From a virus (lineage: Duplodnaviria > Heunggongvirae > Uroviricota > Caudoviricetes), in IMG/VR virus record IMGVR_UViG_2778261069_000008: a stretch of DNA of 25,564 nucleotides. One strand, given 5' to 3'. This document shows, one piece after another, positions 2,780 through 25,437 of the stretch. The notes beneath the pieces were generated by a model. That model was not told the origin of the DNA and searched no databases. It saw only the letters and a list, made by a program, of their open reading frames with translations. The position numbers and the translations under genes are program-made. Each line of letters begins with the position of its first letter. The first letter of the stretch is position 1.

Positions 2780-2854
<75 letters not shown>

Positions 2855-2857
2855 ATA

Positions 2858-2933
<76 letters not shown>

Positions 2934-2935
2934 AC

Positions 2936-3012
2936 TGGACCGCCACCGGGGACTCGAACCTCGCACACTCAACTTAAAGGGTTGACGCTCTTTCCTGATG
3001 AGCTAGTGGCGG
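2936..3012 (-). tRNA. Atypical tRNA-like gene (anticodon loop CCUUUAA, apparent anticodon UUU with C at position 33)
   Basis: Reverse complement CCGCCACTAGCTCATCAGGAAAGAGCGTCAACCCTTTAAGTTGAGTGTGCGAGGTTCGAGTCCCCGGTGGCGGTCCA; 7-bp acceptor, D-arm with GG, T-loop TTCGAGT, CCA end, but C33 instead of the universal U33 and an A-C mispair in the T-stem. Confidence 0.5.
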
Positions 3013-3013
3013 T

Positions 3014-3089
3014 TGGTGGCCCTTGCTGGATTTGAACCAGCGACCTGGCGATTATGAGTCGCTCGCTCTCACCACTGAGCTAAAGGGCC
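3014..3089 (-). tRNA. tRNA-Ile2-like (anticodon CAU; ileX/ileZ-type, could be annotated Met)
   Basis: Reverse complement GGCCCTTTAGCTCAGTGGTGAGAGCGAGCGACTCATAATCGCCAGGTCGCTGGTTCAAATCCAGCAAGGGCCACCA; loop CUCAUAA; strongly resembles E. coli tRNA-Ile2 as recalled. Confidence 0.8.
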
Positions 3090-3287: not shown

Positions 3288-3316
3288 AATATATGCCTTT
3301 CAATCTACTTTTGCAA
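3288..3316 (-). promoter_or_regulatory. Candidate late promoter pR' (sigma-70 type) overlapping the 3' end of the Q-like gene
   Basis: Minus strand TTGCAA - 17 nt - TATATT; position just after Q and before the terminator mirrors the lambda pR'/qut/tR' arrangement. Confidence 0.4.
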
Positions 3317-3995
3317 CACTTTGCTTTGAAAATGCCACCTTTTGTTTTGAACGTGTTCTCATTACAAACAATAAAGCCTCACTATCCAGTCGGTAAAAAA
3401 TGTGTTTCATTGCAACCCAGTGACGAGTAAATGTTTTGGACCAGTTTTTAGTTGTCACTCCCGCCAGTAATGCCAGCTCCTGGTATTCATAACCTTCCCC
3501 ACCAAAAAGTTCTGCTTTTACTGCCTGCGCCGCCAGCCAGATTAATTTTTTCAGGCGTTCCTGCGTTTTCCCTGCAATTTTTCTGGTACCGGATTGAGTA
3601 TTAAATTCATTCCACGCCCACTGTGTTATCGCGATCTGATATTCCCAACAAATATTCCCGCTGTAACACCACAACAACCAGGCTTTATGATGTTCTTCAA
3701 GAGACAGAACAGCCCGCCGCCACGATGATGTCGAAAACTCAACCGGACTGACCAGAGGAATTGACGTCCCCTTCGCCAGTGATTGTTTTCCCGGGATTGG
3801 TGGATTATCCCGCGTTATCATTTTTCCAGTCACCTCATCCCGGTACCGGATTTTTTTACGCCTGTAACGCCCTGTATCGAACATGGCATTCTCCTGCCAG
3901 GCTTCAAGCTGACCTTTTGTTGCCCCACTCAAATCAGCGGTGGCGATAATGAGCTGCTCACGCACAAACTGTAAATACTGGCTATTCATGCGCAC
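3300..3995 (-). CDS. Putative late-gene antiterminator Q
   Basis: 231-aa ORF immediately downstream of rusA and upstream of a pR'/tR'-like unit, tRNAs and lysis genes; assigned mainly by position and size; no clear CxxC zinc-finger pair seen. Confidence 0.55.
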   Translation of the reverse strand: MRMNSQYLQFVREQLIIATADLSGATKGQLEAWQENAMFDTGRYRRKKIRYRDEVTGKMITRDNPPIPGKQSLAKGTSIPLVSPVEFSTSSWRRAVLSLEEHHKAWLLWCYSGNICWEYQIAITQWAWNEFNTQSGTRKIAGKTQERLKKLIWLAAQAVKAELFGGEGYEYQELALLAGVTTKNWSKTFTRHWVAMKHIFYRLDSEALLFVMRTRSKQKVAFSKQSVAKVD

Positions 3996-5408: not shown

Positions 5409-5816
5409 TTACCTCCAGATTCGTTGCTGGAATGTGCGGGACGGACGCGGTGGGCGTTCGGAGTAAGGAAGCCTGACGGAGATTATCCAGTGACGATAAT
5501 CGAGGCTGAGGGCTTTCTTAACCTCGTATCCGCGCCTGCGGTAACACTGAATTATCCATTCAGCCTGCTCTTCAGTGCATGGAGGATGCTGGAACCAGTC
5601 CGATTTGAATGCGTGAAAACGCCGTCCACACCTGCTGGCAAAGACGGCAGAATCATCAGAATAGTGTAATTTGGTATCGTGCGCCATCGGCTGTCTCTGC
5701 TGGCGCAGCAGGTGCCAGTTGTTCAGGCTGGCGTGCGAATTGTAAACCAGAATGCCAGGAAAAAACAAAACCCGCCGAAACGGGTTAAGTGCGGGTGCGT
5801 TGAGGATGCCTGACAC
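5409..5816 (-). CDS. Hypothetical nin-region protein
   Basis: 135-aa track ORF with non-ATG start; a plausible internal ATG start gives 92 aa (MAHDTKLHYSDD...); Cys/His-containing, no family recognised. Confidence 0.4.
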   Translation of the reverse strand: MSGILNAPALNPFRRVLFFPGILVYNSHASLNNWHLLRQQRQPMAHDTKLHYSDDSAVFASRCGRRFHAFKSDWFQHPPCTEEQAEWIIQCYRRRGYEVKKALSLDYRHWIISVRLPYSERPPRPSRTFQQRIWR

Positions 5817-5854
5817 ATCAAAGGTGGCGAGGGATTTCTCCCTCGCCTGGTCTC

Positions 5855-6010
5855 TTACTCCTCAGGTTCGTAAGCTGTGAAGACAGCGACCTCCGTCTGG
5901 TCGGTTCGGATTCGTACCTCGCAGAGGTCTTTCCTCGTTACCAGTGCCGTCACTATGACGGTTAAACAGATGACGATCAGGGCGATTAACATCGCCTTTT
6001 GCTGCTTCAT
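5855..6010 (-). CDS. hok: Hok/Gef-family type I toxin
   Basis: MKQQKAMLIALIVICLTVIVTALVTRKDLCEVRIRTDQTEVAVFTAYEPEE, 51 aa with a single TM helix; matches HokD/RelF as recalled; the track ORF carries a 19-codon in-frame upstream extension. Confidence 0.85.
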   Translation of the reverse strand: MKQQKAMLIALIVICLTVIVTALVTRKDLCEVRIRTDQTEVAVFTAYEPEE

Positions 6011-6422
6011 AGCCTGCTTCTCCTTGCCTTTCGGCACGTAAGAGGCTAACCTACATGTGTCTAGCATGAAATTGGCCTCAGATTAATGTTAAGCGTCTTG
6101 CAGGACGCGTAATGTTAACTGGGGCTTTTCTCTATCTGCCGTTGGTGTTCATGCCCGAGGCAGATAGCCTCAAGCACCCACAGCCATTCTACTTAACTAC
6201 CGTTACCTCGCCAATATGAAATCAGTCAGAAAGGCGATCCATAAGAACAACAGCAAGGCAATAAATTGCCATTACAGCAGCAATAGCCAGCGCACATTTC
6301 AGAACCAGCACAATGACCTCCCACATTTGACGTACACGTGCATGATTCAATATGTGGCAACCTCCTCCTTGCTTCAATGTAAAATCAAGTATTGTTGTAT
6401 AACTATTTAACCAACTCCCTAT

Positions 6423-6466
6423 CCCCGCATCTCAGGCGCCCAACTTATGTGTGCGGGGCGTTTTTT
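6423..6466 (+). terminator. Plus-strand terminator-like hairpin with T-run
   Basis: CCCCGCA...TGCGGGG arms followed by CGTTTTTT; long loop, so weak; could terminate a plus-strand antisense (Sok-like) transcript. Confidence 0.35.
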
Positions 6467-6472
6467 AATACC

Positions 6473-6556
6473 TTACCCCCAGCGGCAAATCAAATACACC
6501 ACCAGCGCCACCGCCAGTGCAATACCTACTGTTGTGAATGCCTCAGGCCAGCTCAT
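6473..6556 (-). CDS. Candidate 27-aa hydrophobic small protein
   Basis: AAGGAGG 7 nt upstream of ATG; MSWPEAFTTVGIALAVALVVYLICRWG is a single predicted TM helix; immediately downstream of the DUF551 gene; below the track's ORF size cutoff. Confidence 0.3.
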   Translation of the reverse strand: MSWPEAFTTVGIALAVALVVYLICRWG

Positions 6557-6560
6557 TGAT

Positions 6561-6908
6561 TCACCTCCTTCGTGGTTCTGGTAGCGGCATCCAGTCGGTT
6601 ACATTGCGGCTCTGTGTTTCAAAAAATTCATTACCATTGCGGACAATATCGAAAAACTCACCGTCTCGATATTGCGCATGAAGAACGAATGCGCCATCAC
6701 ATAAAATAATTACGTGCTGACCATCACCTGGCATTCGCTCACTACAGCTTATCCAACCGCCCGAAGTTACCGGAGAGTTGCCAGTCTTACGCATGGCAAT
6801 CTCCACGATTTCAACCATATCTCCTGGTGGAATTTTACAGTGCTGACCCAAATGCCTCTGCTGCCAGGCATACTCAAGGATGTGCTCCAGTTTGGTTCGA
6901 TTAATCAT
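6561..6908 (-). CDS. DUF551-like phage protein
   Basis: 115 aa ending ...VTDWMPLPEPRRR, the C-terminal WxPLPEP signature I associate with DUF551. Confidence 0.6.
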   Translation of the reverse strand: MINRTKLEHILEYAWQQRHLGQHCKIPPGDMVEIVEIAMRKTGNSPVTSGGWISCSERMPGDGQHVIILCDGAFVLHAQYRDGEFFDIVRNGNEFFETQSRNVTDWMPLPEPRRR

Positions 6909-13092: not shown

Positions 13093-13442
13093 TTTATCCT
13101 CCATTGAGGTTCTGGGTTAAAAATGGAGACCAACACGCTGTCACGTGTGGTCGTGCGCCGGACACGGATAAGAATCCGGTACTGACAGTTTACTGAAAGG
13201 ATATATCCCTGAAAAGCCAGGGCATAACGCGAAAGCACACGGCGAAATTGGTCTCTCTGTACGGTGTCGTTAAATTTAATTCGACCGTGCGCTTCCGGTT
13301 GTGGCACTCCGCGAAATGGCGCGGCGGTAAGTATGGCGGGGTTATTCCTTCCCCGTTGAGGACACCGGGTTGTCAGGTTGACCATACGCTTAAGTGACAA
13401 CCCCGCTACAACGCCCTCTGTTATCAATTTTCTGGTGGCGTT

Positions 13443-13485
13443 TGGCGGTATCAGTTTTACTCCGTGACTGCTCTGCCGCCCTTTT
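13443..13485 (+). terminator. Terminator-like hairpin upstream of the KilR-like gene
   Basis: GGCGG...CTGCCGCC arms followed by CTTTTT; irregular stem, weak call. Confidence 0.3.
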
Positions 13486-16529: not shown

Positions 16530-16739
16530 ATGGCTATGAGCAGCTTATTTTTAACCGAAGATGAATTGCTAATATTAACGGGCTGCAAATATGCAAGCCA
16601 CCAGCGAAAATGGTTAATGGAAAACGGGCTTCCGTTCTATACCAATCGTAGTGGCAAACCGATTGTCAGCCGGGATCTATTTACCTGCAATAAAACTTTA
16701 CCACCGCGCGAGGTAGAGCCGAATTTTGGTGCAATCTGA
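16530..16739 (+). CDS. Excisionase-like small protein
   Basis: 69-aa ORF immediately upstream of and overlapping (ATGA) the integrase gene; LTEDELLILTGCKYASHQRKWLMENGLPFY is typical of small Xis-like DNA-binding proteins. Confidence 0.55.
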   Translation: MAMSSLFLTEDELLILTGCKYASHQRKWLMENGLPFYTNRSGKPIVSRDLFTCNKTLPPREVEPNFGAI

Positions 16740-25041: not shown

Positions 25042-25437
25042 AGGGCAACCTCCGATGAGTATTATTCATTACCACCACCAGAGGTTCCAATCTCATGGGT
25101 GGTGGAACCGGACGGGGTTGGAACTACCGGCCTCATCGACACCGGCGCGTCTTGCGACGCCCCCGCCCGGCCCACCATTGAGATGCAGCCAAGCGCACGA
25201 CACAAAAAAAGCGCTAACGCGCCTTGTGTCGTCGATGAAGTTAGCCAGGGGTTCCAATCCCGACGCCTGATTTTGCAGGCGCAGGGGAAGGATACTGCGA
25301 TGGATAAACAGTGGCAAGAATTAACAACAAAAAAAGAATGACGCAGAAGTCTGTCGAGATTTCAATCTATTATTGAACACCGCGTTCCAACAGGCATACA
25401 CTCCTCAGTGAGACTCAGACTGAGCCAGCCTGTGAAC

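Follow-up and report, generated by a model that had tools for sequence, protein, structure and literature searches.

A probable complete hok/mok/sok toxin-antitoxin cassette of the hokD/hokW type in a lambdoid prophage

Positions 5758 to 6214 of the window, by which we mean the whole 25,564-nucleotide stretch of viral (Caudoviricetes) DNA analyzed here (IMG/VR record IMGVR_UViG_2778261069_000008), most probably form a complete hok/mok/sok type I toxin-antitoxin cassette of the hokD/hokW type, lying in the part of a lambdoid (Rac/Qin-like) prophage that is equivalent to the nin region. We put the probability of this sequence-based reading at roughly 90%. The cassette is an ordinary, intact, RNA-controlled hok/sok copy and belongs to an already known system, since such genes are routinely labeled hokD or MokW, a 94%-identical hokW-sokW locus has been studied by experiment (PMC8621323), and the enrichment of prophages for hok is documented (bioRxiv 10.1101/2025.08.07.668861). 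Its discovery value is accordingly small; it confirms that prophage cassettes of the hokD/hokW type are complete type I toxin-antitoxin systems, with the textbook K-12 relBE-hokD arrangement as a truncated exception. It also marks an annotation gap. Pipelines label the 51-aa open reading frame (ORF) hokD alone, which is the RefSeq label for the homologous genes, and leave Sok, mok, and the leader unannotated, so that records covering the leader show "none." The coordinates are collected in Table 1.

Table 1. Elements of the candidate hok/mok/sok cassette and a neighboring hairpin, by position in the window
Feature	Positions	Strand	Description
hok/mok mRNA promoter	6186..6214	-	-35 TTGGCG (6214-6209), 17-nt spacer, -10 TAGAAT (6191-6186)
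Full-length hok mRNA	5766..6179	-	About 414 nt; 5' end placed at the Rfam model start, 3' end at the terminator
hok mRNA leader	6005..6179	-	tac, tac-stem, ucb, mok initiation region, dcb, hok Shine-Dalgarno
tac (translational activator element)	6168..6179	-	GGGUGCUUGAGG; invariant in 64 relatives
ucb/anti-Shine-Dalgarno element GCCCC	6121..6125	-	Assigned by analogy with the R1 model summarized in PMC9841398
mok reading frame	5855..6067	-	70-aa ORF; Shine-Dalgarno GAGG 6079-6076, ATG 6067, in frame with hok
dcb GCCUC	6042..6046	-	Within family-invariant AGCCUCUUAC; invariant across hokB, hokC, hokD, and R1
hok toxin coding sequence	5855..6010	-	51 aa plus stop, internal ATG 6010; HokD-type with G37D
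3'-UTR hairpin	5826..5847	-	GGCGAGGGA / UCCCUCGCC; perfect 9-bp inverted repeat
fbi (fold-back inhibitory element)	5793..5805	-	CCUCAACGCACCC; 12 bp with tac, one bulged C
Intrinsic terminator of hok mRNA	5758..5786	-	Stem 5786-5769, then T-run; found by terminator scan; coincides with lower cassette boundary
Sok promoter	6024..6052	+	-35 TTGCCT (6024-6029), 17-nt spacer, -10 TAACCT (6047-6052); read from sequence
Predicted Sok antisense RNA	6059..~6135	+	71-77 nt; single-stranded 5' tail, long hairpin, U-rich tail
Terminator-like hairpin	6423..6466	+	GC stem 6423-6431/6451-6458, then T6; outside the hok/sok cassette

The 51-aa Hok protein, MKQQKAMLIALIVICLTVIVTALVTRKDLCEVRIRTDQTEVAVFTAYEPEE, a membrane toxin of the Hok/Gef type, matched the Pfam family HOK_GEF (PF01848; E value of 2.8e-21, 75.3 bits against a cutoff of 22) and PHROG 251, "MokW-like host killing" (E value of 8e-32). 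It is identical to K-12 HokD at 50 of 51 positions (98%), G37D being the sole difference, and it retains the family-invariant residues C15, T17, T25, R26, L29, E31, R35, E40, V41, and A42. A preliminary description, made from the letters of this DNA, had called the protein HokD/RelF-like, had pointed to an in-frame 19-codon upstream extension, and had proposed mok-type coupling. The family match and the identity to HokD bear out the first of these, the extension is exactly as described (6067..6011), and the coupling is supported by a mok frame that has its own Shine-Dalgarno sequence, stays open through hok, and has a start homologous to that of mokC. Indeed, in the alignment the mok ATG shares its columns with the annotated start of mokC and with that in Sakai prophage 5 (Sp5). 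The mok frame is in frame with hok here, in Sp5, and in hokC but is out of frame in Rac-442/2, through a 1-nt insertion, and in the annotated K-12 mokB. Such differences between loci fit the published view that it is translation through the hok initiation region that matters, rather than the Mok product (PMC9841398). Near the end of the toxin gene, codon 47 (5869-5872, minus strand) is a Tyr codon, UAC, followed by G; the resulting UACG is the context reported for TadA A-to-I (Tyr-to-Cys) recoding of hok mRNAs, and hokC, hokD, and hokE are reported to be edited at the codon corresponding to Tyr47 (bioRxiv 10.1101/2025.08.07.668861).

The hok promoter was the only sigma-70-like site called by a consensus scan of positions 5600 to 6700, and its -10 element and the start GGGTGC align with those of the hokC, hokB, Sp5, and R1-type loci. 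A search with sok/mok covariance models, which had been suggested as a check, gave a match of the leader to Rfam RF01794 ("sok") with 115.3 bits (gathering score, 59) and an E value of 6e-26, over the full model length (1-157) and on the hok-sense strand; model position 1 falls at 6179. Nothing else credible was found by Rfam at an E value of ≤1 over 5700-6700. The same model matched the R1-type plasmid locus (87 bits, hok-sense strand), the Sp5-type locus (113.5 bits), and Rac-442/2, and it gave no match to K-12 hokD. Because the matches here and in the R1-type plasmid are to the hok-sense strand, RF01794, named "sok antitoxin," models the hok mRNA leader rather than the antisense RNA. An Rfam "sok" match thus marks the hok leader, and the real Sok lies on the opposite strand, covering about half of the match.

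The full transcript (6179..5766) folds at -174.3 kcal/mol, with a z score of -8.6 against shuffled sequences. Pairing of tac with fbi, with a duplex energy of -21.5 kcal/mol, is present in the full-length minimum-energy fold, where ucb (6125-6121) also pairs with the mok Shine-Dalgarno region (6079-6075). Among 64 distinct close relatives, 97.6% of cells were paired, and double changes occurred in seven pairs, compared with 2.7 in shuffles. In the tac stem, for example, A-U became G-C, and pair 339:352 of the 3'-UTR hairpin changed from A-U to G-U in 18 sequences and to G-C in 2. Most base pairs are uninformative for or against structure, because the 64 relatives are 97% identical and these pairs never vary. 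A broader comparison took 78 loci from species-representative genomes and sought the best duplex of each 5' end with the 130 nt that follow the hok stop. The loci fall into four mRNA 5'-end classes, each of which pairs best with its own 3' region (-19.6 kcal/mol for cognate against -14.9 kcal/mol for noncognate combinations). Thus tac and fbi covary family-wide, as expected. A lack of conserved fbi- and tac-like elements had been named beforehand as a reason to give up the hok/sok assignment; both elements are present, as a 12-bp helix, and cognate pairs are the strongest.

Trimmed transcripts were also folded. With 60 nt removed from the 3' end, the thermodynamic fold has tac predicted to pair with ucb (GGG/CCC and GCUU/AAGC) and the mok Shine-Dalgarno GAGGC with dcb, and the predicted hairpin that results has a loop, CUAGACA, which carries a YUNR-type CUAG and is complementary to the 5' end of Sok. 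This outcome depends on trim length; with 45 nt removed, tac is predicted to pair with 6161-6151, an arrangement that resembles the metastable 5' hairpin in the R1 model. The predicted folds match the R1 scheme as summarized in PMC9841398. The inverted repeat TGCCTCGGGCA, singled out earlier in the leader, does exist. It occurs once, at 6162..6152 on the minus strand (0.03 matches expected by chance), and lies in the stretch with which tac is predicted to pair in the metastable 5' hairpin; it is not, however, a conserved palindrome, as R1 and hokC are without it. A CUCUUAC/GUAAGAG helix is likewise predicted, with no varying pairs. Other candidates were rejected. The helices of the full-length minimum-energy fold that join mok region 6067-6055 to 5818-5806 and GAAA to UUUC are broken in 25 of the 64 relatives. 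An assignment of GCCUCUUAC as ucb and of GUAAGAG at the hok stop as dcb is ruled out by the definitions in PMC9841398, which reserve the name ucb for the anti-Shine-Dalgarno GCCCC upstream of mok and the name dcb for GCCUC.

On the plus strand, within the leader, we predict a cis-encoded sok gene that has a promoter and a terminator hairpin of its own. An alignment was made of the window and K-12 hokC/mokC/sokC, hokB, an Sp5-type Stx phage, Rac-442/2, and an R1-type locus. The putative Sok promoter occupies the position of TTGCGC/TATCCT in the R1-type locus, and positions 6024-6057 are identical in the Sp5-type locus; its -35 element overlaps the complement of the hok Shine-Dalgarno sequence. 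Matching the consensus at 7 of 12 positions, it falls below the threshold of the consensus scan and went uncalled, and it was therefore assigned by homology. In Sp5, mutations in the -10 element or promoter abolished the antitoxin activity of sokW and unmasked HokW toxicity (PMC8621323). The ends of Sok were transferred by alignment from the annotated K-12 sokC, which places the 5' end at G6059, 7 nt beyond TAACCT, and the 3' end at 6135. The region from 6057 to 6135 folds at -30.6 kcal/mol (z score of -5.6 against shuffles), and the predicted RNA is fully complementary to positions +45 to +121 of the mRNA, spanning the mok Shine-Dalgarno sequence and ATG; sokW is likewise described as having a 71-nt stretch complementary to the hokW 5' UTR (PMC8621323). 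The Sok-like antisense locus proposed earlier is thus supported, at the sequence level, by homology to sokC, sokW, and R1, but at 6059..~6135 rather than with an end at 6423-6466.

The mok initiation region, which is also the Sok 5' tail (6055-6075), varies more than any other part of the cassette, which is otherwise 97% conserved. At least six distinct alleles were seen among the 64 relatives, including the type of the window, GGCCAATTTCATGCTAGAC, and the hokW type, GGCTCAATCCATGCTGAAC. These alleles may represent distinct Sok specificity classes.

The following regulation of the cassette is proposed from its homologs, R1 hok/sok and Sp5 hokW-sokW. The full-length mRNA would be locked by 5'-3' pairing of tac with fbi, with ucb holding the mok Shine-Dalgarno sequence, and in this state neither translation nor binding of Sok would occur. 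Once fbi had been lost through slow trimming of the 3' end, tac would pair with ucb and the mok initiation region would be presented in a hairpin loop. The short-lived Sok would bind this loop via its 5' tail and block translation of mok, and with it the coupled translation of hok, and the Sok/mRNA duplex would be cut by RNase III. Should the supply of Sok stop, either because the element is lost or upon prophage induction (as has been shown for sokW), Hok would be made and the inner membrane depolarized. Hok toxicity, Sok-dependent repression, and the short half-life of Sok have been shown for the homolog hokW-sokW (PMC8621323) and for R1.

The surroundings are those of a typical early right region of a Rac/Qin-like lambdoid prophage. 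Upstream are genes for DUF1627 (YdaW-like), DUF977 (Ren-like), and DUF551 proteins, the last of which (6561..6908) is the next gene upstream of the hok region. Downstream are a PHROG-1212 protein, a DUF968/HNH protein 81% identical to K-12 YdfU, a weak match of the RusA type, and a cluster of four tRNA genes. Homology blocks shared with differing or unrelated prophage contexts start or end at 5761/5768 and at 6180-6199, where the transcription unit itself ends. Close relatives of the 70-aa Mok-Hok product are encoded on at least 594 IMG/VR contigs, and two of these relatives are 100% identical to it.

Several features lie farther off in the window. The four tRNA genes (2780-3089, minus strand; Gly-UCC, Thr-UGU, Lys-UUU, and Met-CAU) lie about 200 nt downstream, on the same strand, of an ORF at 3300-3995 that sits where related loci have the Q antiterminator, the family match being absent here; the tRNA arrangement is as in Stx-type lambdoid phages. 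A full-length DicF small RNA (13430-13481, plus strand; 76.4 bits) places the prophage in the Qin/dicBF-type group. An integrase ORF (16739-17764) adjoins tRNA-Ser(CGA) (17817-17906) and is followed by mtfA, tRNA-Asn (18898-18973), and a second integrase ORF (19033-20397); the order of features from 16739 to 20397 suggests two elements integrated next to each other. The chromosomal stretch shares only about 88% identity with E. coli, and the host is for this reason probably a non-coli Escherichia such as E. albertii. Beyond the second integrase, matches above Rfam gathering scores were obtained for EFASI RNA (22681-22809), C4 antisense RNA (25095-25182), and isrK (25204-25282), all on the minus strand, and the adjacent C4 and isrK would fit a P4-like element.

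The alternative that survives best, and one that we consider unlikely, is that the architecture is intact and the cassette functionally inert or attenuated, a decaying passenger like the K-12 chromosomal hok loci, with G37D or weak promoters as the cause. Position 37 is Gly in all five Hok proteins compared (HokB, HokC, HokD, HokW, and R1 Hok), and D37 was found in 3 of 64 relatives. Because the substitution is rare and hits a family-conserved Gly, the toxin may be attenuated; a search of PMC9841398 for data on the equivalent Gly found none. The Sok -10 element, TAACCT, matches the consensus at 3 of 6 positions, and several chromosomal hok loci that have been assayed showed no postsegregational killing, hokA, hokB, and hokC being unable to mediate it (bioRxiv 10.1101/2025.08.07.668861). 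Against decay, every regulatory element is present and conserved, several E. coli genomes carry copies of the leader with 100% identity, two independent IMG/VR contigs encode the identical 70-aa product, and the near-identical hokW is toxic and regulated (PMC8621323). We favor the reading of a complete cassette under ordinary RNA control.

Just upstream of the cassette is an unannotated 29-aa hydrophobic ORF (6222-6311, minus strand; GTG start, MLVLKCALAIAAVMAIYCLAVVLMDRLSD, Shine-Dalgarno GGGAGG), which ends 8 nt before the hok -35 element. The conserved segment around it (6200-6382) matches 3,537 of 5,426 E. coli genomes, mostly without annotation, and the database labels that exist are only "putative membrane protein" or "hypothetical." Its variable sites are distributed 5/5/12 over the three codon positions, the frame is open, with in-frame 3-nt deletions in some copies, and a large share of Escherichia prophages carry the ORF together with the cassette. 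A 27-aa ORF (6473-6556, minus strand; MSWPEAFTTVGIALAVALVVYLICRWG) with a strong Shine-Dalgarno sequence, AAGGAGGTGA, directly follows the DUF551 stop, and its variable sites are distributed 7/7/16 in eight distinct homologs. Searches of Pfam, PHROGs, and NCBIfam with these two small ORFs and a plus-strand ORF at 6216-6410 yielded no families. It is conceivable, though we regard it as doubtful, that the 29-aa membrane-peptide gene is coupled to hok/sok, through read-through into the hok unit or as a peptide that modulates Hok; a related and equally doubtful possibility is that the Sok 5'-tail/mok alleles are orthogonal specificity classes. If so, orthogonal Sok classes would let several prophage hok/sok copies share one cell.

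The two small minus-strand ORFs flank the terminator-like hairpin at 6423-6466, which the preliminary description had taken for the terminator of Sok. The structure exists, but it is not that of Sok, which is predicted to end near 6135 in its own hairpin and U-tract. The hairpin folds at -14.0 kcal/mol with an unremarkable z score of -0.96 against shuffles, and the region from 6415 to 6470, folded on either strand, gave a z score of about -1; the terminator scan missed the hairpin, whose loop exceeds 8 nt, and no Rfam model matched it, even at an E value of ≤1. It starts 288 nt past the predicted 3' end of Sok and, at 244 nt upstream of the point where hok transcription begins, lies beyond the cassette boundary that recurs at 6180-6199. 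It was found in only 4 of about 84 related loci, in which some hairpin and T-run persist at -12 to -18 kcal/mol. That the antitoxin is instead a long plus-strand RNA running over the hok leader and terminating at this hairpin is very improbable. The GC stem and T6 are on the appropriate plus strand, some hairpin and T-run are kept in the four relatives that have the segment, and the hairpin could stop read-through from the Sok promoter. Yet the Sok hairpin and U-tract near 6135 are homologous to those of the 59-nt sokC and the 71-nt sokW (PMC8621323), and the 6423-6466 hairpin, with its modest fold score, lies beyond the cassette boundary and is absent from about 95% of related hok loci. The hairpin may serve to end plus-strand (antisense) transcription.

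That hok is the distal gene of a degraded relBE-hokD operon such as that of K-12 Qin can be dismissed almost outright, despite the 98% identity of Hok to K-12 HokD and the 81% identity of the flanking DUF968 protein to YdfU, since similarity to RelB and RelE is absent at both the protein and DNA levels, a full leader and its own promoter stand where relBE would be, and the homology to K-12 breaks at 6024, K-12 being the rearranged copy. A tblastn search of the whole window with the K-12 RelB and RelE proteins returned only noise with E values of >1, a blastn search with relBE DNA found only the 14 nt directly upstream of the hok ATG, and the minus-strand ORFs in 6068-6560 reach at most 51 aa. 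These searches agree with the earlier remark that the 500 bp upstream of hok on the same strand hold no RelB/RelE-sized ORFs, and they found in the window none of the degraded relBE remnants that had been named as an explanation contrary to it. The K-12-type relE-hokD junction is also absent from the window.

The comparison with K-12 Qin hokD (relF), the third gene after relBE, accounts for this absence. The coding sequence, 3' UTR, fbi, and terminator are common to both loci, as is the DUF968 (ydfU) neighbor, although K-12 has rem between hokD and ydfU and the window does not. With 50 of 51 amino acids identical and a conserved downstream region (97.4% DNA identity over 5761-6024), the gene belongs to the HokD orthologue group. 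The homology to K-12 Qin spans 5761-6024 only and stops 14 nt upstream of the hok ATG, and because it breaks there, K-12 is the rearranged copy. The hok promoter, tac, ucb, mok start, and Sok all lie upstream of 6024 and are missing from K-12 hokD, which, judged by this alignment, is a truncated derivative of this type of cassette with its leader replaced by relBE. The window holds the untruncated form, in which the absence of relBE is expected. The leader segment missing from K-12 (6025-6179) was found at ≥80% coverage in 4,287 of 5,426 complete E. coli genomes, some copies being 100% identical, compared with 1,173 of the same 5,426 for the relE-hokD junction. A hok gene without relBE is therefore the normal state in E. 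coli. The gene had been described as a "standalone" hok; this holds insofar as relBE is absent, but it is not unusual, the relBE-hokD form being the truncated and less common one.

Relative to K-12 hokC/mokC/sokC (gef), mok is likewise in frame, the mok ATG, Sok start, and leader elements align, and Hok is 80% identical. The hokC leader is without an 18-nt hairpin insertion present in the window, which is why sokC is 59 nt, and the K-12 hokC copy is disrupted downstream by IS186. The hok/sok (parB) system of plasmid R1 is the plasmid-borne paradigm and is used for postsegregational killing. It resembles the window in gene order, leader model, tac/fbi logic, and Sok promoter position. Its Hok is only 39% identical, and its 5' end is GGCGCUU, whereas that of the window is GGGUGCUU, each with a matching fbi.

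Also among the closest known systems is hokW-sokW of Sakai prophage 5 and Stx-converting phages, an experimentally shown type I toxin-antitoxin system (PMC8621323). It is the same cassette in the early right lambdoid region, with about 94% DNA identity over 5783-6198, and it shares the in-frame mok, an identical Sok promoter stretch, and, in the Sok hairpin, a 16- to 18-nt insertion that hokC and R1 are without. The Stx2 phage I record differs at its lower end, where it is without the GCGGGTT terminator stem. The Hok C terminus reads TAYEPEE in the window and VDYESEK in hokW, and G37D is found in the window protein. The two loci differ as well at several positions of the Sok 5' tail and mok initiation region, each having the allele given above, a difference that may give the window cassette a Sok specificity distinct from that of hokW-sokW.
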